From the IMG/VR virus record IMGVR_UViG_3300008107_006173: 64,000 nt of DNA; one strand, written 5' to 3'. The notes under the pieces are model-generated. The model saw only the letters and a list, made by a program, of their open reading frames with translations. It did no database searches and was not told where the DNA came from. This document shows positions 1 through 45,622 of this stretch, in pieces (position 1 is the stretch's first letter; each line of letters begins with the position of its first letter). A program made the position numbers and the translations under genes. This stretch comes from a virus. Taxonomy: Duplodnaviria > Caudoviricetes.

Positions 1-624
1 GGTAGCAAGCATGGGGTTTTTGTTATTGCGGAAATCGTATCCACAGAAGCTACAATTAAACTTGCACCCTAATGCAAGTTCAATAGTAAAGAATTCACCA
101 GACTGCCAAAAATCTGTTTCTATTGGTACAGGGCAAACTGGATTTTCTAAAATCTTAGTAGGTGGATTCTTTAGAGTTAGCGGATCTGTTGCAAATACAT
201 ACTTGCTTATATCCTTACCCTGAATCCATTCTGAAAAGATATTAGTGCTTCTACCAACAAATGAAACGTCAACCCAAGAGCTATCACCAACTACTACGCG
301 ATAACCACCGAGTATAACTTTTAGATGTGGAATGTCTTTTTTAAGCTCTAATACCAATGATTTAAAATCGTCAGTACTACTACCGTCAATGCTACCACTA
401 AGGGCTAGCCAAATGCCATCGCTATCACCAAACCATTTAAGGATTGATGTTTTGAGTAGTTCTAATGGCCATTCACGCCAATAGTCCATGTTAGTTGCAT
501 CTACTCCCAAACTTCTTGCAACGGCAGCAATATGCAAACTACCTGCGGGCCTGCCGTTATTTTTTATCAGACCTACTCTAGTAGGTTTCAAACCGAGATC
601 TGATAAAATTAGAAGTTTCTTCAT
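1..624 (-). CDS. B12-binding radical SAM protein (partial, runs off window start; absent from ORF track)
   Basis: ATG at 624 overlaps the clamp-loader TGA; open to base 1; MKKLLILSDLG...VILGG...IELALGCKFNCSFCGYD contains CxxxCxxC after an N-terminal cobalamin-binding-like region. Confidence 0.75.
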   Translation of the reverse strand, partial: MKKLLILSDLGLKPTRVGLIKNNGRPAGSLHIAAVARSLGVDATNMDYWREWPLELLKTSILKWFGDSDGIWLALSGSIDGSSTDDFKSLVLELKKDIPHLKVILGGYRVVVGDSSWVDVSFVGRSTNIFSEWIQGKDISKYVFATDPLTLKNPPTKILENPVCPVPIETDFWQSGEFFTIELALGCKFNCSFCGYDFRNNKNPMLAT

Positions 625-1547
625 CACTGGGAATTCAATTGTAGCTCAATTAGTGTAGCACTAAGATTAATTTCTGAATCAGCACATAGGCTGCTCTTGG
701 CCATTCCATCACGAATAATCACAACAGCTTGGTCCTGTTGTAACTGTGTCTTGCCCCAAAGATCTAGATTGCGATACATGAAGCGATACACTTCGTCATA
801 CTCTTCCGGCCGGGCTTGCCCTACAATAAGTTCACGAGCAGTTTTATATTCGCCACTCTTAAACAGATCAATAGCATTCAGCATCCAATCACTGGAACTC
901 TTATCACCTGCTTGCGGCTTTTGTAATGTACCATCAACAACATTTTGCTGTACTAGGTTAATACACTTACGCAAGTCTGGATAGGTTGCTTGTACATAAG
1001 TGTCCAGCGTTTCTAGATCAATATCAACACCTTCGGTTACACAGATTTCTGCAATCCTTGCAGTAAATTCTGTAATGTCTAACTTTTCAATGTGAAAGCC
1101 CTGACAACGACTGTGTAGTGCAGGAATAATCTTATGAGGATAGTTACAAGTTAGGATAAATCTACAGAAGTTGCTAAATGTTTCCATAACATTACGCAAT
1201 GCTGCTTGAGCGTTTGGAGACAGGTAATCCGCCTCGTCAAGTAGAATATATCGCATACCACCAAAGCCCATTGTAGTTGCAAACTTTGTGATACGATCTC
1301 TTACTTCATCAACACCATTTTGAGATGAACCATTCATCTCTAAAATATCCATACTATCGACACCAAGCTCGTTGAGCAATACTCTTGCTAGAGTAGTTTT
1401 TCCTGTACCGGGAGCACCGCTAAACAATAGATGCGGCAATGCACCATCAGTAATCCAGCCACTCACCTGTTGTTTTTGTTTCGTGTCGCGAAACACATAT
1501 TCGTTAATCGCCTTGGGGCGATATTTTTCTGTCCAAAGTTCTTTCAT
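624..1547 (-). CDS. Sliding-clamp loader small subunit (RFC / T4 gp44-like AAA+)
   Basis: WTEKYRP, Walker A GAPGTGKT, Walker B LLDEAD, SRC motif, YPDLR. Confidence 0.95.
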   Translation of the reverse strand: MKELWTEKYRPKAINEYVFRDTKQKQQVSGWITDGALPHLLFSGAPGTGKTTLARVLLNELGVDSMDILEMNGSSQNGVDEVRDRITKFATTMGFGGMRYILLDEADYLSPNAQAALRNVMETFSNFCRFILTCNYPHKIIPALHSRCQGFHIEKLDITEFTARIAEICVTEGVDIDLETLDTYVQATYPDLRKCINLVQQNVVDGTLQKPQAGDKSSSDWMLNAIDLFKSGEYKTARELIVGQARPEEYDEVYRFMYRNLDLWGKTQLQQDQAVVIIRDGMAKSSLCADSEINLSATLIELQLNSQ

Positions 1548-1556
1548 TGCGCTCTC

Positions 1557-1787
1557 TTATTGAATGGTAATATCTGGTATATCTAGCTTTTTAACTCGGT
1601 CTCGTGAATTATATATCTCCAACATAATATCGTTGAAATCACTTTCCGAAAGGATAGTTTTATAGATAGTTAATGCCTGTGCTGCTAGTACAGCAGCAAT
1701 TTCTAAACCGCTATGACCGTCTGTTAATGTTTTTTCTGCAACAAATTGCATTACATCTTGGTAGAGTTGCTCAGTTAAATCTTTCAT
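1557..1787 (-). CDS. Hypothetical protein
   Basis: 76-aa ORF tightly packed in operon. Confidence 0.7.
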   Translation of the reverse strand: MKDLTEQLYQDVMQFVAEKTLTDGHSGLEIAAVLAAQALTIYKTILSESDFNDIMLEIYNSRDRVKKLDIPDITIQ

Positions 1788-1954
1788 ACTAGTTCCTCTA
1801 GAACGCCTAGCAGCTCTGCGCCAATTAGAAGTAGGCCTGCTCCTACTAGATTGCCCTGTATCAGGAATACGCCAGCAATAATACGCAGAACGCTTTTGCT
1901 TAGGCTTACATAAAAATGACCCTTACCGGGGTCCTTGGAATTGATTTTAAACAT
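1784..1954 (-). CDS. Small membrane protein
   Basis: Start moved to ATG 1954 (AGGAG RBS upstream); two hydrophobic segments. Confidence 0.65.
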   Translation of the reverse strand: MFKINSKDPGKGHFYVSLSKSVLRIIAGVFLIQGNLVGAGLLLIGAELLGVLEELV

Positions 1955-1979
1955 ACATGGTCTCCTATGTCCCATGTAC

Positions 1980-2008
1980 ATTATAGCAAAAAAACAGGCT
2001 TATGTCAA
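1980..2008 (-). promoter_or_regulatory. sigma70-type early promoter
   Basis: TTGACA-N17-TATAAT on minus strand. Confidence 0.75.
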
Positions 2009-2175
2009 TTGTTTTTTGTTTTACCCATCTCGACACCTGCGGCGCTGAGAATCAAAAGTATAGAAAGTATTAACCACCAAGCTGAAACTTGCCCCCAAAT
2101 AACAGCGGCAAGTAGAATATTGCCCGAAAGGCCTAGGGAAGTTAACCCAACTTTTTCAACTGTTGATATTTTCAT
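2005..2175 (-). CDS. Small membrane protein (56 aa, absent from ORF track)
   Basis: MKISTVEKVGLTSLGLSGNILLAAVIWGQVSAWWLILSILLILSAAGVEMGKTKNN; start overlaps GroES stop. Confidence 0.6.
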   Translation of the reverse strand: MKISTVEKVGLTSLGLSGNILLAAVIWGQVSAWWLILSILLILSAAGVEMGKTKNN

Positions 2176-2543
2176 ATAAATTCTTTCTTTGCTGCACTCA
2201 CAGCATTAGTATTGAAAACAATAGTATCAGATGGAGGTTCATCGCTGACTAGCAAGCATGCCTTTGGGTCGACTTTCCATACCTTCTTTTTATTTTCTGG
2301 AGTATCAAAGCGTTCATCTTCTAATTCAATCGCTTCTGTCCAACGAGCATATTCAACATAAACCCATTGCCCGGGCTGTATCCAATCGATATCTGGGCCT
2401 ACTTCAAATACGCGAAACCAGCGAGGCACAATGCCTTCGCCCTTGCCAATAGTACTTTGTACAATTAGTCCGCCAGCGGTAACCTTATCACCAAAGTCGC
2501 CATCGGTACACAGTATATTATCTCTAATTGCTCGCAGTTGCAT
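2172..2543 (-). CDS. groES: GroES/Cpn10-like co-chaperonin
   Basis: MQLRAIRDNIL...TAGGLIV...VFEVGP...IQPGQWV; GGAGG RBS before ATG 2543. Confidence 0.8.
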   Translation of the reverse strand: MQLRAIRDNILCTDGDFGDKVTAGGLIVQSTIGKGEGIVPRWFRVFEVGPDIDWIQPGQWVYVEYARWTEAIELEDERFDTPENKKKVWKVDPKACLLVSDEPPSDTIVFNTNAVSAAKKEFI

Positions 2544-2544
2544 T

Positions 2545-2895
2545 TTAGCCTCCAAGTTTCTTAAAAGCGCGGCGCATCCGTATATCATGTTTTAGATCTC
2601 CCATTGGATGCTCGTCGGGGAGATCATTAATTACTTCCAACAACAATTTTAAATCGTTAATGAGTGTGGCATCAATTTGAGCGTCTTCTTTGCCTGTCTT
2701 AATAGTTATAACACCTGCGGCAGCCGGTTGCGTAAATGCAAATCCGTTACCACTGATACCACTGATACTGTGAGGAACTGTAAATGTAGGAGCCGCTGTT
2801 GTTATTGTACCTGCTGCTGTCTTTAGCCCGTGATGCGGACCAGAAAGAATACTATTGCCATTTTGATTAGCAAAGACTGTTTTACTATTACTCAT
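2545..2895 (-). CDS. Hypothetical protein
   Basis: ORF; likely start MSNSK at 2895. Confidence 0.6.
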   Translation of the reverse strand: MSNSKTVFANQNGNSILSGPHHGLKTAAGTITTAAPTFTVPHSISGISGNGFAFTQPAAAGVITIKTGKEDAQIDATLINDLKLLLEVINDLPDEHPMGDLKHDIRMRRAFKKLGG

Positions 2896-3304
2896 CACTC
2901 TTATACACGGGAACCATTTCGATGTCACCGTTTGGGAGTGTTACTTCTCTATAACCAATTGGTTCAACGGGAGCATCAAACTCATCGGGCTCAGCGACCG
3001 GAGCAGGCTTATTAGCCTTTGCTGTTGCTGCTGTCTTTACTTCAGCAGTTTTAGGAGCATCAGGCGTTAATTTAGCTGATGGTGTTTCACCCTTAAGGCT
3101 TGCTGATGAGGTACTGCTGCGAGGATTGCTTTTATAATATGCTCGCACACGCTCTTCGTTCTTTTGAACAATTTCACCACCTTTACCTAGCACATCACCC
3201 TGTGCGTTGACACGCATGTTTCCAACCGCAGGCGATGCCTGTTGACTGGCTATAAGCGCATCAAAATCTACTTGCATACCTCGGTTGCTTCTGCGAACAG
3301 TCAT
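2888..3304 (-). CDS. Hypothetical protein
   Basis: 138-aa ORF with Ala/Pro/Lys linker, GAGG RBS. Confidence 0.7.
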   Translation of the reverse strand: MTVRRSNRGMQVDFDALIASQQASPAVGNMRVNAQGDVLGKGGEIVQKNEERVRAYYKSNPRSSTSSASLKGETPSAKLTPDAPKTAEVKTAATAKANKPAPVAEPDEFDAPVEPIGYREVTLPNGDIEMVPVYKSDE

Positions 3305-3311
3305 TTTAACC

Positions 3312-3770
3312 TCACTTTAAAAATTCTCTAATATCTAAATTATATTTAACACTATCAATCTTGTGAACCCCGATGAGGTAGAGGCAGTAACTAGCTACAC
3401 TACTGCCTCTACCCACACCCCAAACAAGATTGTGTTTACGCATCGTATCAACAATATATATCAACAATTGCAGTATTGGAAATAACTTCCTGGTGCGGAA
3501 TAATTCTAGTTCCATTTCTACACGGTCTTGCCCATCGGGCGTTAAGTTACGAGATAGATTACGCACATACTGCTCAACATCAATTTGCTTGTAGTGTTGG
3601 GGTATATTGAACTCCTTGCTATAATCAATTTTATTTACAAGTTGCTCAATATCCAATTGTTCGCACATACTGTTGAATTTATCAACATCATCGAAAGGGA
3701 TATTATATAGACTTCTACCTCTATATAATAATTCAATTCCTTGATCTTCAGTGCAGAGTATTTGTTGCAT
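3312..3770 (-). CDS. DNA polymerase III alpha (family C) fragment
   Basis: WGVGRGSSVASYCLYLIGVHKIDSVKYNLDIREFLK matches DnaE GxGRGS...LxxxLGITxxDP...LxFERFL; only 152 aa. Confidence 0.8.
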   Translation of the reverse strand: MQQILCTEDQGIELLYRGRSLYNIPFDDVDKFNSMCEQLDIEQLVNKIDYSKEFNIPQHYKQIDVEQYVRNLSRNLTPDGQDRVEMELELFRTRKLFPILQLLIYIVDTMRKHNLVWGVGRGSSVASYCLYLIGVHKIDSVKYNLDIREFLK

Positions 3771-3776
3771 TATTAT

Positions 3777-3805
3777 ATTATAACTTAATAACTTTTGATT
3801 GTCAA
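3777..3805 (-). promoter_or_regulatory. sigma70-type early promoter
   Basis: TTGACA-N17-TATAAT just upstream of the DnaE fragment. Confidence 0.7.
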
Positions 3806-3807
3806 TA

Positions 3808-4566
3808 CTAAATTACTTTTGGGATCCACTTTTTGGGTTTCTTTTCGGCAAAATCAATTTCTATAACTTCTGCTTCTTCGGGGGCTTTCCCTTCTTTGGA
3901 ATCTTTTGCCCGCTTGAACAGCGATCTAATTTCTTCCTCAAGTACTTCAAATGCTTGATTATGCATGTTAGCATCTTCATCTTCATCTTGCATACGCTTG
4001 CGTACAGCTTCTAGTTCCTCAGGAGATTCTGCACAGTTATCAAATGTGCTAGCATCATTCCTATCCCACCATGGCTCTTCCCAAAAACTTAGTTCGCCCA
4101 ACCATTCGGCCGTCGACGGTAATGCTGGCACTACATCATCAAACTCATCTGAGAAGTAATCATAGTTTAATTGGAGGTCTAGGTCTCTTAGTTGTATTCT
4201 TTCAATGTTTGAGTGTGTTGCGATAGCATTCATTTTAGAATGTAGTGCTAAAACAAGAATGTGTTCTTCGAGCGTTGGGAGTATCATTAAATTATTATCA
4301 AATGATGTAGCTATATATTTGTGCATTTCTGCCATGATATCATTTTTAAAAACAAAACTTTCGTTAACTACATTTTCTAAGAAGTATAAAATTTTACTGA
4401 AGCTTACATTTTGATCTACTTGGGCTTGAAAAATATCATCTACTTCTGACCCATCAGTTGATAATGTAAAGCCTAATTCGTAGGTTTTAACTTCTACTTT
4501 TTTGATGCTGTTATCAAACATCATTAATTTTAGTTTAATAGTTTTTTCAAGATTGAAGCTTCTCAC
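3808..4566 (-). CDS. Hypothetical acidic protein
   Basis: 252-aa ORF in operon. Confidence 0.75.
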   Translation of the reverse strand: MRSFNLEKTIKLKLMMFDNSIKKVEVKTYELGFTLSTDGSEVDDIFQAQVDQNVSFSKILYFLENVVNESFVFKNDIMAEMHKYIATSFDNNLMILPTLEEHILVLALHSKMNAIATHSNIERIQLRDLDLQLNYDYFSDEFDDVVPALPSTAEWLGELSFWEEPWWDRNDASTFDNCAESPEELEAVRKRMQDEDEDANMHNQAFEVLEEEIRSLFKRAKDSKEGKAPEEAEVIEIDFAEKKPKKWIPKVI

Positions 4567-4865
4567 TTTTTCACCCCCTTGTGGTATTGTTGTACAACAG
4601 CGTTAAGTAGAACTTCCTTACTATAGTCTGGTGTAAAAGTTTCCTGGTCTACGGTACCAATTTCAATTATTTTATCTTCAACTTTTACACGCTTCTTGTA
4701 ACACATTTCATCATAGGCATCGTTAGCAATGCCGATCATGTCAACTAATTGATTATAGATCGGGGATGTGGCATTAATTTTAAAAAGCTGTTTGTTTAAT
4801 CTTTCAATTTCAGCCACAAGTTTATCCTCAGGCAACTCGTATACTTTTGCATAATAATCTTCCAT
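4563..4865 (-). CDS. Hypothetical protein
   Basis: 100-aa ORF, overlapping stops/starts. Confidence 0.7.
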   Translation of the reverse strand: MEDYYAKVYELPEDKLVAEIERLNKQLFKINATSPIYNQLVDMIGIANDAYDEMCYKKRVKVEDKIIEIGTVDQETFTPDYSKEVLLNAVVQQYHKGVKK

Positions 4866-5179
4866 TAGTTGCCTCCGGTAATTATTTTAAAGAATGCCAT
4901 GCTCTCTGCATCCTTAAATCTTATTTCATTATTTTTGAGTTGATAGTCCCATAATTCTCTGAGACCTAATTGTTTGAGTTTAGTTTTAATCTCTTCTCTA
5001 TGACTGCTATTGATTCTAATGTCAAATTTAATTCTATAGCTGCGCCATTGCATCCAAAGATCAAAAAAGTATGAAGTTCGTTCAGTGACTGAAGGATTCA
5101 ATTTACCAAAGGCTTGAATCATTTCGTCGTCTATAAAGATATCCTTGTAGATACTACTGCGGGATGCACTTTTGCTCAT
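4865..5179 (-). CDS. Hypothetical protein
   Basis: 104-aa ORF; C-terminal IRFKD..SMAFFKI motif. Confidence 0.65.
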   Translation of the reverse strand: MSKSASRSSIYKDIFIDDEMIQAFGKLNPSVTERTSYFFDLWMQWRSYRIKFDIRINSSHREEIKTKLKQLGLRELWDYQLKNNEIRFKDAESMAFFKIITGGN

Positions 5180-6017
5180 CGTAGTAAACCTTTAGTGTCT
5201 GTTCAGTTATGTGTAGAACTTGCTTACGCATTCTAAAAATTAAGTCAGTAACGCCAAAAGCATTATCTACAAAATTTTCAATAGTAAATTTTTCTTCGTT
5301 GCCTATAGCTAAACAGTTATAACCTATAATTTTATGATTTAACCTTCCAAAGTTTAGCTGAGACTTATCTATTTCAAATTTTCTTAAAGGAACGTTAGTG
5401 ACAGTGAAGCAGGCTGTTGTTTTAAACACATCATTGGTATCTGCAATTACTGACGCAACCTTACCATCATTTTTGCTACGATCTAACACCACAGTAAATC
5501 TTCTATTCAAACTTACTAGTGATTGATATCTATCGCTTTCTTTGGCTAATTTAAAACCAATAGTTTCAAAATATTCTATGACTTCACTGTCTGAATCATT
5601 AATAATAATTCCTGTAAAATTTTCTAAGCCTGTTGTGCTATATCGTTTTTTATCAATTAATGTGTATTCGTTGTTTAAAAACATTTCAGTCCAATCTTCA
5701 GGGACAAATAAAATTCTTAACGAATTACTCAAGGTAATTGAAAACGCATTGCTGTTTTCTAGAGATAGTGAATCAGCAATCAATTCTAATGTTGTTAGTG
5801 GCATATTAAAACCAATACCACTTATACGGGGCTCTAGGCCGTCTGCAATTTCTCTTAGTAAAATGATACTTTGATTTTGCGACCAAAATCCAACGGGTGC
5901 AGAGTTATGCTGACTTCTATGCACGAAACCCATTTTATTTAATTTTGTATGTATAGTTTCCCTGTCGTTAACGGATGGATCAAAACTATATTCTAAGAAA
6001 CTAAAATTTGACATCAC
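5154..6017 (-). CDS. HPPD-like / VOC-fold protein, probably metal-site degenerate
   Basis: FSFLEY..KMGFVHRSQHNS..FWSQNQSIILL..ISGIGF and IADTNDVFKT resemble 4-hydroxyphenylpyruvate dioxygenase motifs by eye. Confidence 0.45.
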   Translation of the reverse strand: MMSNFSFLEYSFDPSVNDRETIHTKLNKMGFVHRSQHNSAPVGFWSQNQSIILLREIADGLEPRISGIGFNMPLTTLELIADSLSLENSNAFSITLSNSLRILFVPEDWTEMFLNNEYTLIDKKRYSTTGLENFTGIIINDSDSEVIEYFETIGFKLAKESDRYQSLVSLNRRFTVVLDRSKNDGKVASVIADTNDVFKTTACFTVTNVPLRKFEIDKSQLNFGRLNHKIIGYNCLAIGNEEKFTIENFVDNAFGVTDLIFRMRKQVLHITEQTLKVYYDEQKCIPQ

Positions 6018-6370
6018 ACTTTAAAATTGACACTCTCACCGCAACCACAAGAACTTGCTGCAAGGGGAGACCATATATCAATAACTGATCCGCTGATGTC
6101 AGTTTTCTTATCTACAACACTTCCGGTTAAGTAAAGTTCTGATGTTTTGTCCAACCAAAACATCCAACCATCATAGCTATGACCATATTCAGTCATGTCT
6201 ATTTCACTTGGACTTTTTACTAGTTCCCAGTGGTAACTGAAGCCAGCACAGCCGCCGCCAGAGAGACTCAATCTCACGCCTAGAGCATTTGCGCCTTTAA
6301 CAACCGCAGCAAAATGTTCCTGTGCAGTTGGGGTAAAGTTAACGATTTCTTCTTGCATTTTAGTATCCAT
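6014..6370 (-). CDS. iscA: A-type Fe-S carrier (IscA/SufA/HesB)
   Basis: RLSLSGGGCAGFSY and SSCGCGESVNF; start shortened to 6370 (or 6358). Confidence 0.9.
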   Translation of the reverse strand: MDTKMQEEIVNFTPTAQEHFAAVVKGANALGVRLSLSGGGCAGFSYHWELVKSPSEIDMTEYGHSYDGWMFWLDKTSELYLTGSVVDKKTDISGSVIDIWSPLAASSCGCGESVNFKV

Positions 6371-40227: not shown

Positions 40228-41485
40228 TTATGCCTCTGTATGTTTTATACTGTGTGTCAATTTCAGTCCTGCCATCTTCGTATTTTAGAATTGGTGCATG
40301 ACTACTTGACACTGGATACTTATCAAGTATTATTTCAACTACGCCTTGTTTTTTGAGTTCGGGTGCTCTGTACATAATATTGATTAGAGTTTCCTCCACA
40401 ACACCCTTTAACGCTCTAGCGCCAAGTTTTCTCTTTATAGCAAGTGTTGCTGCCGTTCGTATGAACTCGTCCCCGAACGACAATTTAAGATTATCTATTT
40501 CTAATAGTTTTTGGTTCTGCTTTAGAATGCTGTTTTTCACGGATGTTAGCACATGAATTAACTGTTCGTCAGACAGCTTGTCTAGTGGTGCAATAATTGG
40601 TAAGCGACCTAATATTTCAGGAATTAATCCATAGTCAATTAAATCTTCAGCTGAAACAGATCGTAACAAGTTCTGCTTTTCTGCTTCGGTAATTACCTTA
40701 GCGCCAAACCCAATTGTACTTGACTTGCGTAATCTGCGTTCAATATTCTTTTCAATACCAACAAACGCACCACCTACTATAAACAACACATTAGTTGTGT
40801 CAAAGTCTATATAATCGTCAGCATACTTTTTACCAGTTGATATTTTTACTTTGGTAGTTGTACCCTCAATTAACCGTAGTAATGCTTGCTGTACACCCTC
40901 ACCACTTACATCGCGAGTAGCAACATTGCTTTCACTGCGTCTTGCTTTTTTATCAATTTCGTCAATGTATACTATGCCCTTTTGTGCAAGGTCAATGTCA
41001 AAGTCGGCAATAGTTAATAGTCGTTCTAGAACACTTTCAACGTCTTCGCCTACATAACCTGCTTCAGTTAGTGTAGTAGCATCAGCAATGGCGAACGGAA
41101 CATTTAATTTCTTAGCCAATGTCTTAGCAAATAGTGTTTTACCTGTGCCGGTAGGTCCAATTAGAAGTACATTGGTTTTTTCAAGTTCTATGGTTTCGTC
41201 ATCGGACAGCACACGCTTATAATGATTATATGCGCTGACGCTTAGTAGTTCTTTGGCACTTTCATGGCCAATGATATACTCGTCTAGGTGTTCCTTAATT
41301 TCTTTTGGACTAGGTAGTGTGCCAAAATCTGATTCTTCTTCTGGCTTGTCTATTTTTTGAACAATGTTGTAACTTAAAACAACACATTCGTTGCAGATAT
41401 AAACATTAGGGCCTGCGATAAGTTTTTCAACGCTGTCCCTGCTTTTCCCGCAAAAACTGCAATTTAGCATTTTGGTTTCTGGCAT
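40211..41485 (-). CDS. clpX: ClpX ATPase
   Basis: CSFCGK..CNEC zinc finger, [38 protein letters not shown] loop, LGARAL. Confidence 0.97.
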
Positions 41486-44358: not shown

Positions 44359-44915
44359 CCTTCGTATACTGCGCTGTTAGCACTATGTTCGAATACTTCT
44401 GCACTACGCAGGCGTACACCCTGTCCTACAGGATAGCGGCAGCTAAATGTCTTACCATTAGGTAGTGTGTAACTCTCACCACGCTGGTAAGTCTCGAGAA
44501 TTTCTTGCATGGTCTTATATACAAGCTCTGCAAACTTTTCGCAGCCTACACCTTCGACAACACGCAAATCACATAATGCGCCCCTCTCGTTGGGCTTGTC
44601 ACTGGTTGGATCGTTGAATGCTCCGATAGTAACGATGTCGTTCATCTGTTTAAAGAAAGGTAGATGAGGATCATCATGACCAACAATTAGAGTATGATCA
44701 AACATGTATTCTGACCATTCCTTAAATGCTTTGAGGCCGCCAAAGTCCATGACCCAGTTACGGTCGTCTAGTGTTTCACTTTCAAATACTAGTTTGATAC
44801 CTAGAGAGTATCCGTGTATCAAACTGCAATGACTATGTGAGCTGCGCCACTGTCTAAATGTGCAGCTAAGTCCGCGATCGTTCCCGTATGTTTTTGTTGA
44901 TAGATATTTTGCCAT
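44355..44915 (-). CDS. queD: 6-carboxytetrahydropterin synthase (QueD/PTPS)
   Basis: HCSLIHGY, WVMDFGGLK, FDHT, CEKFA, EVFEH. Confidence 0.9.
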   Translation of the reverse strand: MAKYLSTKTYGNDRGLSCTFRQWRSSHSHCSLIHGYSLGIKLVFESETLDDRNWVMDFGGLKAFKEWSEYMFDHTLIVGHDDPHLPFFKQMNDIVTIGAFNDPTSDKPNERGALCDLRVVEGVGCEKFAELVYKTMQEILETYQRGESYTLPNGKTFSCRYPVGQGVRLRSAEVFEHSANSAVYEG

Positions 44916-44990
44916 TGTGTATCTCCGTTAGATTATCAATGACACGCAGAGTATTTAAAGAGGGATGAGCGTCAATAAAGTCCTCTATAC
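44916..44990 (-). ncRNA. Candidate preQ1-I-like riboswitch / pseudoknot leader of queD
   Basis: AGAGG..loop..C-CCUCU-UUAAAUA; loop UGACGC pairs with GUGUCA; promoter TTGACA-N16-TATAAT at 44996-45023. Confidence 0.45.
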
Positions 44991-45036
44991 TTTATATTAT
45001 ATATCATCCCTCTGTTTTGTCAAGTAATTTTTTAGG

Positions 45037-45150
45037 TTACTTCCTTAGCATTCCTAAAACTTTTTCTTTTATCATCTTTGCCCAAATTGGTTCTGGGAAA
45101 TGCCAACCAACAAATGCGCCAACCAAAATCCAAAATAATGTATCTAACAT
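45037..45150 (-). CDS. Small membrane peptide (37 aa)
   Basis: MLDTLFWILVGAFVGWHFPEPIWAKMIKEKVLGMLRK, GGAG RBS. Confidence 0.65.
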   Translation of the reverse strand: MLDTLFWILVGAFVGWHFPEPIWAKMIKEKVLGMLRK

Positions 45151-45166
45151 GGTATACTCCTATAGA

Positions 45167-45622
45167 TTAATTACACCAGCTGGTCTTTGCTTCGCCGTAA
45201 TATTCGCGAGCATAGCCTTTTGTGATTAGAAGTTTTCTCAAACTCTGACCATCAATGATAACGTCTCCTAGTACACGACCACCATACTTGTCCCAATCCA
45301 TTAGAACAATTTCTAGCTTCTTAGCATTTGCGATTGAGTCTTTGGTAAATGATGTTGCTGCTTGACCCAACTTATCTTCAGCTGGGCATTTAGCACGGAA
45401 ACTCTTTTCAGGTGTGTCTACACCAAATACTCTGATGCTTAGTTCTTTCTTAAGTGGCGCAGGCAACCAAGGTGCTGCAAACGCAACGGTGTCACCGTCA
45501 ATAACTCTGAGTACAGTTGCATCATAAGTTACACCTGCTTTCTGTTTGCCTTCGCTTACCTGTGCAAATGATGCTGTTGAAGCAAACATTAAAACTAATG
45601 CTGCTGTTAAAAATTTAGTCAT
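45167..45622 (-). CDS. Staphylococcal nuclease-like (SNase) protein with signal peptide
   Basis: RVIDGDTV, IRVFGVDTPE, DKYGGRVLGDV, LITKGYAREY. Confidence 0.92.
   Translation of the reverse strand: MTKFLTAALVLMFASTASFAQVSEGKQKAGVTYDATVLRVIDGDTVAFAAPWLPAPLKKELSIRVFGVDTPEKSFRAKCPAEDKLGQAATSFTKDSIANAKKLEIVLMDWDKYGGRVLGDVIIDGQSLRKLLITKGYAREYYGEAKTSWCN

Follow-up and report, generated by a model that had tools for sequence, protein, structure and literature searches.

How is translation of the QueD-like gene controlled in a 64,000-nucleotide (nt) stretch of DNA from a tailed jumbo phage (Caudoviricetes; IMG/VR record IMGVR_UViG_3300008107_006173; hereafter the window, meaning the whole stretch)? 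A preliminary description of the sequence had placed a promoter and a pseudoknot leader resembling preQ1-I riboswitches directly upstream of this gene, on the minus strand, and our analysis confirmed that observation. We consider it probable that the leader is a phage-specific riboswitch candidate, with a compact H-type pseudoknot aptamer that is built like preQ1-I with additions and whose ligand could be preQ1 or another molecule. All features described below are on the minus strand of the window.

The pseudoknot spans positions 44986–44940, between the promoter and the QueD-like gene. The promoter is of the sigma-70 type and matches the consensus at 12 of 12 positions (TTGACA at 45023–45018, a 16-nt spacer, and TATAAT at 45001–44996; overall 45023–44996), with an expected transcript start at approximately 44989–44987, 1–3 nt 5′ of the first helix (P1). 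The aptamer is arranged in the order P1, loop L1 (N-C-U followed by a variable part), pseudoknot helix P2a, a U·C opposition, helix P2b, a 2-nt junction ending in an invariant C, the 3′ strand of P1, a 10-nt A-rich loop L3, and the 3′ strand of P2. Across the motif family, P1 has 5 bp, P2a has 4–6 bp, and P2b has 2 bp. In the window, the 5′ strand of P1 (AGAGG, 44986–44982) pairs with its 3′ strand (CCUCU, 44963–44959), and this helix was 99–100% paired in relatives. L1 (ACUUUAU, 44981–44975) carries C and U at its second and third positions, both invariant in relatives, and its remainder varied in length (alignments A1–A3). The 5′ strand of P2a (UGACGC, 44974–44969) pairs with GUGUCA (44945–44940), which also forms the 5′ part of a helix sequestering the start codon. 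The intervening UCAUC (44968–44964) contains U44968, which lies opposite C44946, the 5′ strand of P2b (C44967 and A44966), the variable U44965, and the invariant junction base C44964. The 13-nt A-rich stretch 3′ of P1 (44958–44946) starts with UUAA and ends with UCUGC; it comprises L3 (UUAAAUACUC, 44958–44949), whose positions 3, 5, and 7 were invariably A in the protein-fetched alignment A1, the 3′ strand of P2b (UG, 44948–44947), at which compensatory changes were found, and the invariant C44946. The promoter, P1, the C immediately 5′ of the second P1 strand, the UUAA-starting loop, and the UGACGC/GUGUCA pairing had all been placed correctly in the preliminary description.

Folded as a single sequence, the leader formed P1 and the start-codon hairpin, with an energy that was not significant (z-score, −1.57). 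The sequence by itself therefore proves little, and the case is carried by comparative evidence. We identified 327 protein relatives in IMG/VR and kept 80 loci for leader inspection. The leader motif was found exactly once in 77 of these 80 protein-fetched loci, and its distance from the start codon was 40–60 nt in nearly all of them; in L034, L064, and L071, the motif stands ahead of a different open reading frame (ORF) or an extended version of the gene. Among 37 distinct leaders with a 5-bp P2 (alignment A2), 92.9% of the cells were paired, and P1 was paired in 100%. The outer pair of P1 alternated between A-U and U-A and its central pair among C-G, A-U, and U-A, and three pairs of P2 were changed on both sides. 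The covariation score of A2 was 0.364, compared with 0.163 in shuffled alignments (0 of 500 shuffles reached the score) and 0.03–0.11 with slid partners. A covariance model (R1) built with P2 as its structure detected one copy in the window (44991–44937; 68 bits), which shows uniqueness only, as the window belonged to the training set.

We also scanned IMG/VR with a sequence pattern independent of the gene, which yielded at least 120 loci; R1 aligned 100 of these, 94 of them distinct (alignment A3). Among the matches listed, 96.6% of the cells in these 94 distinct sequences were paired, seven of ten pairs were changed on both sides, and the score was 0.338, compared with 0.120 in shuffled alignments and 0.02–0.08 with slid partners. 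All five core pairs of P2a varied on both sides. Aligning the queD leaders of related phages had been proposed as a check on the original observation, and in these alignments the covariation of P1 and P2 greatly exceeded that in the shuffled and slid controls.

The analysis added a second part to the pseudoknot helix. C44967 and A44966 can pair with U44948 and G44947, extending P2 by 2 bp across the invariant U44968·C44946. Both pairs of P2b were 100% paired in the gene-based alignment A1 (55 distinct sequences), in which one clade (five distinct sequences) had changed C-G to A-U and L012 only had changed A-U to G-C. A scan for nine double variants at the first P2b pair returned many chance matches. 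Complete P1 and P2a accompanied two kinds of double variant only, A-U (seven distinct sequences) and U-A (five distinct sequences, in a new, unrelated clade), and no real motif was present among the scan matches for the non-complementary double variants. The second pair of P2b showed one uncompensated exception in a loose parse of the protein-fetched loci. P2b is backed by three independent compensatory events.

The invariant unpaired bases were the CU of L1, the U·C opposition, the junction C, and the As of L3. The loose parse of the protein-fetched loci gave 80 true instances of the motif, all 80 of which kept both the junction C and the U·C opposition. In A3, in which the As of L3 were fixed by the search pattern, the bases at L3 positions 4 and 6 co-varied with the type of base pair at the center of P1 (mutual information, 0.97 and 0.76 bits); this coupling may reflect either minor-groove triples or shared ancestry. 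Two divergent leaders were observed. In L538 (IMG/VR 3300000517_000010; leader before a start at 401), U replaces the junction C (UCACU-CCACU); this single natural variant could be a sequencing error. In purine and preQ1 riboswitches, specificity shifts when the C that pairs with the ligand is replaced by U. In L536, L3 is shortened to 9 nt compared with 13 nt, and P1 has 4 bp.

The gene that follows the leader encodes a protein of 186 amino acids (44915–44355) of the 6-pyruvoyl-tetrahydropterin synthase (PTPS) family. It matched Pfam PF01242 (E-value, 1e-11) and PHROG 2389, "QueD-like 6-pyruvoyl-tetrahydropterin synthase" (E-value, 1.6e-32), and was 49% identical to the QueD of Pseudomonas phage Iggy within the alignment. 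The invariant CxxxHGY motif was common to the window protein and its cultured-phage homologues, including the QueD proteins of Iggy and Me-ZS1; the corresponding motif of cellular QueD is CxxxHGH (PMC10516641). The profile match together with this catalytic Cys motif places the protein in the phage QueD family, and its score against the NCBIfam QueD equivalog model (36.8 bits) was below the cut-off of 89.

The motif was linked exclusively to this gene family. Among the matches listed in the IMG/VR pattern scan (at least 120), the first downstream ORF was QueD-like in 112 of 120. In four of the remaining eight loci, one extra ORF (a cupin, a methyltransferase, one unassigned protein, and a longer PTPS-like protein) lay between the motif and the QueD-like gene or replaced the gene; the other four consisted of two start-codon miscalls of QueD-like genes and two contig ends. 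A scan of metagenomes gave 121 matches, 112 of which were QueD-like, and the rest were mainly contig ends, with one chance match and one partial duplicate. Among 185,579 species-representative cellular genomes, there were seven true matches, all on contigs of metagenome-assembled genomes (1 to 32 kb, most <8 kb) and all preceding QueD-like ORFs wherever downstream DNA was present. The motif is phage-restricted, and viral contigs from fresh water and the sea contain hundreds of different copies; its carriers comprise three sequence types of the QueD-like protein and a large marine clade. Seven marine QueD-like loci (L447, L452, L455, L462, L503, L505, and L509) have no leader, and in these the gene overlaps the upstream stop codon; such leaderless members indicate that the motif was repeatedly lost or gained. 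The cultured homologues, at approximately 40–50% identity, were those of Iggy, Me-ZS1, BUCT-ZZ01, Pan1, Motura, and ACP17. The QueD genes of cultured phages are tightly packed among QueE, QueC, FolE, and DpdA genes and have no leader, and the motif produced only chance matches when compared with cultured phages by blastn.

We then consider how the pseudoknot could act on translation. In the window, UGUCAUUG (44944–44937), which overlaps the 3′ strand of P2a, pairs over 8 bp with CAAUGGCA (44917–44910), which covers the AUG at 44915–44913. This pairing over the start codon had been pointed out in the preliminary description and is present. The Shine–Dalgarno (SD) sequence GGAG (44926–44923) lies inside the hairpin (44944–44910) and is partly paired. 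The hairpin was the minimum free energy fold (−10.3 kcal/mol; z-score, −3.3), compared with −6.0 kcal/mol for the P2a duplex, so that the default state should be closed. When 58 distinct leaders were folded from the 3′ strand of P2a to 12 nt past the AUG, 57 had 2–7 bases of this strand in a competing helix, with the region of the start codon as partner in 46 and the SD in 11. The solutions differed by clade: UGUCAUUG/CAAUGGCA, UGUCAUC/GAUGGCA, CCUAUG/CAUAGG(AG), UACCAUAUU/AAUAUGGUA, and, in a marine clade, AAGUCAUC/GAUGACUU. In other clades, the second codon varied together with P2 (GCA, GUA, ACU, GGU), so that three segments co-vary, namely the 5′ strand of P2, its 3′ strand, and the start region. 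Of the mutually exclusive folds proposed earlier, the start-codon helix was conserved; the additional pairing of CUCUG with CGGAG at the SD was dropped, as it was not conserved among relatives and its UG belongs to P2b.

No terminator was found in the leader. The 3′ end of the pseudoknot lies 25 nt 5′ of the AUG, outside the usual footprint of the 30S subunit, which makes direct occlusion of the ribosome unlikely. Since the 3′ strand of P2 is at the same time the anti-start or anti-SD strand, pseudoknot formation should free the ribosome site, and from the predicted thermodynamics and the conserved complementarity we infer that the switch direction is ON.

The position of the promoter is consistent with an aptamer at the end of its own transcript. 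A sigma-70 match of at least 10 of 12 was found in 57 of 163 distinct upstream regions of relatives, compared with 6 in shuffles; the −10 box ended 6–9 nt 5′ of P1 in 41 of them. With the promoter placed at the foot of P1, the mRNA that it yields opens with the aptamer in many phages, the window included. The promoter spacer of the window also contains AGAGGGAUGA (45013–45004), the exact complement of UCAUCCCUCU (L2 and the 3′ strand of P1, 44968–44959). It had been described as a second copy of the leader word and proved to be its exact reverse complement; the expectation that read-through transcripts would fold differently was borne out, with a 10-bp AGAGGGAUGA/UCAUCCCUCU helix forming in the predicted read-through RNA (z-score, −3.99). 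The predicted energy of this duplex was −16.1 kcal/mol, compared with −5.3 kcal/mol for P1. As the word would be present only in transcripts reading through from upstream, it would replace P1 and disable the aptamer in these. A 10/10 complement occurred in 5 of 273 distinct leaders, namely in the clade of the window and in the unrelated L162, where it has the compensatory form AGUGGGAUGA/UCAUCCCACU and falls within the final codons of the ORF upstream. This compensatory form argues that the pairing is selected, and the word may serve to silence read-through transcripts or to couple the leader to upstream translation.

Contigs overlapping the leader and the 5′ region of the gene came from river and freshwater metatranscriptome libraries (e.g., 44967–44753 and 44958–44842); as these libraries may contain DNA, the contigs show neither a transcript start nor expression, and nothing follows from the missing coverage upstream of 44973. 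Immediately 5′ of the promoter lies a 37-codon ORF (45150–45037) encoding a small hydrophobic peptide, whose DNA was 80.5% identical over 82 nt to that of Pelagibacter phage Mosig EXVC030M and which had no PHROG match. In L280, a marine metagenome contig and close relative of the window, the promoter and the 5′ part of the motif occur twice (955–992 and 2118–2155). The copy that precedes the QueD-like gene is complete. Its counterpart, which drives genes for two small signal-peptide-bearing proteins, no longer has the P2 3′ strand and looks like a duplicated promoter and leader captured by an inserted cassette.

In the reading that we favor, the leader's own strong promoter would start transcription at the foot of P1. 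Without ligand, the 3′ strand of P2a and the next few bases would pair with the start-codon region, or with the SD in other clades, and initiation would be blocked. A bound ligand would lock the pseudoknot and withdraw the anti-start strand, turning translation of the QueD-like protein on. The likeliest kind of ligand would be a guanine-faced heterocycle of the route from GTP to 7-deazaguanine, or guanine itself; candidates are dihydroneopterin triphosphate or another pterin, 7-carboxy-7-deazaguanine (CDG), preQ0, preQ1, and 7-deazaguanine. A metabolite-sensing switch on 7-deazaguanine or pterin synthesis, as envisaged in the preliminary description, is still the best reading. The leader combines the features by which riboswitches are generally recognized, that is, a covarying aptamer, invariant bases of a putative pocket, a competing expression platform, and linkage to genes of one pathway. 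Together with the case of a divergent preQ1-I considered below, it seems quite likely that the element is a small-molecule riboswitch of one kind or the other. More tentatively, and at somewhat less than an even chance, it would represent the first riboswitch class of the phages' own, an offshoot of preQ1-I with an extended P2, a new pocket, a ligand other than preQ1, and ON logic. The ligand would then be dihydroneopterin triphosphate or another pterin, CDG, 7-deazaguanine, or guanine released in base exchange, and the phage would commit the GTP-derived precursor to 7-deazaguanine synthesis only when this signal is present.

Several points weigh against a small-molecule ON riboswitch. In the pattern used for the gene-independent scan, several loop bases and the G/C pairs of P1 were prescribed and the letters of P2 left free, and A3 was aligned by a model that contained P2a. 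Several covariation events are common to whole clades, and the independent events are fewer than the counted cells. The marine variant L087 had no predicted sequestering helix, and the direction itself is based on predicted thermodynamics and conserved complementarity. Biosynthetic genes are seldom under ON control, and to our knowledge no preQ1 riboswitch works in this manner. The covariance model found no motif near the QueD genes of six cultured phages. Finally, a protein ligand is possible.

An alternative is a translational operator in which a phage protein, perhaps the QueD-like enzyme itself or a regulator, stabilizes or melts the pseudoknot and no small molecule takes part. Leader pseudoknots serve as protein operators in phages (T4 gene 32 and regA), the motif occurs in phages only, and a conserved structure with a competing helix would fit any trans-acting stabilizer equally. 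The 5′ pseudoknot of T4 gene 32 mRNA likewise lies at the 5′ end of a phage mRNA and controls translation initiation; however, it binds its protein co-operatively along an unstructured tract and has neither a conserved junction pocket nor a competing anti-start helix. The motif described here travels with the QueD-like gene across very different genomes with no constant second neighbor gene, and its size, invariant unpaired junction bases, and preQ1-I-like layout are typical of small-molecule aptamers. We therefore regard a protein operator as unlikely.

It appears quite unlikely that the motif is a genuine, if divergent, preQ1-I riboswitch for preQ1 or preQ0, in which P2 and L3 are expanded and a known class has a new expression platform. 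The resemblance is real: both are H-type pseudoknots with a 5-bp P1 of the AGNGG/CCNCU kind and a downstream P2 3′ strand, both have an invariant C directly 5′ of the second P1 strand and an A-rich L3 after P1, and both precede a gene of the queuosine/7-deazaguanine pathway. C44964 stands where preQ1-I has its ligand-pairing C. PreQ1 (RF00522) was the top Rfam match of the relative L013, in an alignment that covers only P1 and the words UCCC and UAAAAA; it reached 16 bits compared with a gathering threshold of 39 and included model positions 6–34 only. A search with the preQ1 models had been proposed for the window, and it turned out negative: neither RF00522 nor any related family gave a match at E ≤ 10 on 44700–45300, RF00522 gave none on the L039 leader, and no family in Rfam 15 matched the whole window at the gathering threshold. 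The top match of L039 was preQ1-II (RF01054) at 16.4 bits compared with 47, in an alignment that ignores the helices.

Ligand contacts of preQ1-I include the U right after P1 (U6 in B. subtilis) and the A right before the 3′ strand of P2. In the motif, the base after P1 was C, A, or U in near-equal shares, in keeping with the deviation noted in the window beforehand, and the base before the 3′ strand of P2a was the invariant C of UCUGC. Further differences were found in P2 (4–6 bp, the U·C opposition, and 2 bp in the motif compared with 3–4 bp in preQ1-I), in the added invariant word UCUGC that L3 bears, in the SD, which lies 8–14 nt or more beyond P2, and in the source, as the motif is known only from uncultured phages. 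In addition, the strand that masks the start codon or the SD is here the 3′ strand of P2 itself, giving a predicted ON rather than OFF switch, and ON logic would be senseless as end-product feedback. The likeness to preQ1-I held for the H-type layout, which is conserved, the junction C, and the A-rich L3, and failed for the family score, two of three ligand-contact positions, the lengths of P2 and L3, and the OFF logic. Judged from these comparisons, the motif resembles preQ1-I in layout but does not appear to be a member of the known class.

Type III preQ1-I of E. coli also has its ribosome-binding site outside the aptamer, and its effect on translation could be relayed through downstream alternative pairing; it is an OFF switch that binds preQ1, whereas the relay proposed here has two parts and ON logic. 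SAM-II and SAM-V are likewise small H-type pseudoknots of approximately 50 nt with loop-helix contacts and translational control, and SAM-V is found in aquatic organisms, but they share no sequence or model similarity with the motif and have other conserved loops and another gene association. We found no published description of the motif in the literature searched, the coverage of which left out subscription journals.

A structured leader that acts without a ligand, by fixing the translation level, stabilizing the mRNA, or responding to temperature or upstream translation, is very unlikely: it would fit the unexceptional single-sequence fold and the anti-aptamer word found upstream in L162 and the clade of the window, which suggests coupling to upstream transcription or translation, but some trigger seems needed to account for the invariant unpaired bases, the U·C opposition, and two conserved folds that exclude each other, and the strict link to one enzyme family points to the chemistry of that enzyme.

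To place the riboswitch candidate in its pathway, we searched five carriers of the motif, comprising two essentially complete genomes (349 kb, 97% completeness; 202 kb, terminal repeats) and three large fragments. FolE and a match to the QueE model were present in all five, and a search with the QueE-like protein of L212 gave matches in both complete genomes and one further fragment (3/3). Neither QueC nor a protein matching the Pfam TGT (tRNA-guanine transglycosylase) family was found in the five carriers. In the 349-kb phage (L050, genome G001; 37–6365) and in L100, the motif and the QueD-like gene are preceded by genes for a DegT-like aminotransferase, a protein without assignment, FolE with an N-terminal extension, and a HIT protein, and followed by those for another unassigned protein of 280 amino acids and a B12-binding radical SAM (S-adenosylmethionine) protein of 665 amino acids. 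Genes for QueE-like and cytidylyltransferase-like proteins lie further on in this cluster, and the whole 349-kb genome contains no QueC- or TGT-type gene. In other carriers, phosphoribosyltransferase and QueE-like genes are located 3′ of the QueD-like gene, as in cyanophage BUCT-ZZ01. The phosphoribosyltransferase gene adjoins the QueD-like and QueE-like genes in L162 (2487–3943) and in L234 (Synechococcus phage BUCT-ZZ01). By analogy with toyocamycin biosynthesis, the phosphoribosyltransferase hints at a 7-deazapurine route at the nucleotide level. Phages with DpdA, FolE, QueD, and QueE but without QueC make 7-deazaguanine DNA (Cui et al., 2023; PMC10516641), and the pathway of the carriers may be similar to theirs or new.

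In the window, tblastn with FolE, QueE, QueC, DpdA, phosphoribosyltransferase, HIT, and B12-radical-SAM queries from relatives and cultured phages detected no pathway gene besides the QueD-like one. By the CheckV estimates of related contigs, the genome probably measures roughly 350 kb, and the window would be about one fifth of it. In a search for a DpdA3-like gene, no homologue of gp123 of Acidovorax phage ACP17 was found in the five carrier phages. ACP17 gp124 (L360, 10192–11220), located between FolE and QueE, is a weak GT1/GT4-like glycosyltransferase match; its homologues adjoin FolE in four of five motif-bearing jumbo phages (G001, G002, G003, and G012), with 40% identity in one and approximately 24% in the others.

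Other genes near the leader in the window are encoded at 41485–40211, 45622–45167, 46215–45679, 47119–46586, 50535–48636, and 53557–52235. The neighbors include genes for a ClpX-like ATPase, a staphylococcal-nuclease-like protein, and an aminotransferase, as well as two pairs of paralogues, namely two SleB-type cell-wall hydrolases and two nucleotide-sugar epimerases. No tRNA genes were found in the window.

Riboswitches have rarely been found in phages, with only a handful known, and undiscovered classes have been suggested (McCown et al., 2017; PMC5473149). The motif contrasts with this reported rarity: it is abundant, it occurs in phages only, and it accompanies a single enzyme of 7-deazaguanine synthesis, a pathway by which phages shield their DNA against restriction (PMC10516641). 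As the carriers lack QueC and a recognizable transglycosylase, their pathway may also be new. If the motif binds a small molecule, it would represent a new ligand or specificity on a very small scaffold and provide a natural ON switch of approximately 80 nt for synthetic biology. It would also offer a handle on how jumbo phages time the hypermodification of their DNA.

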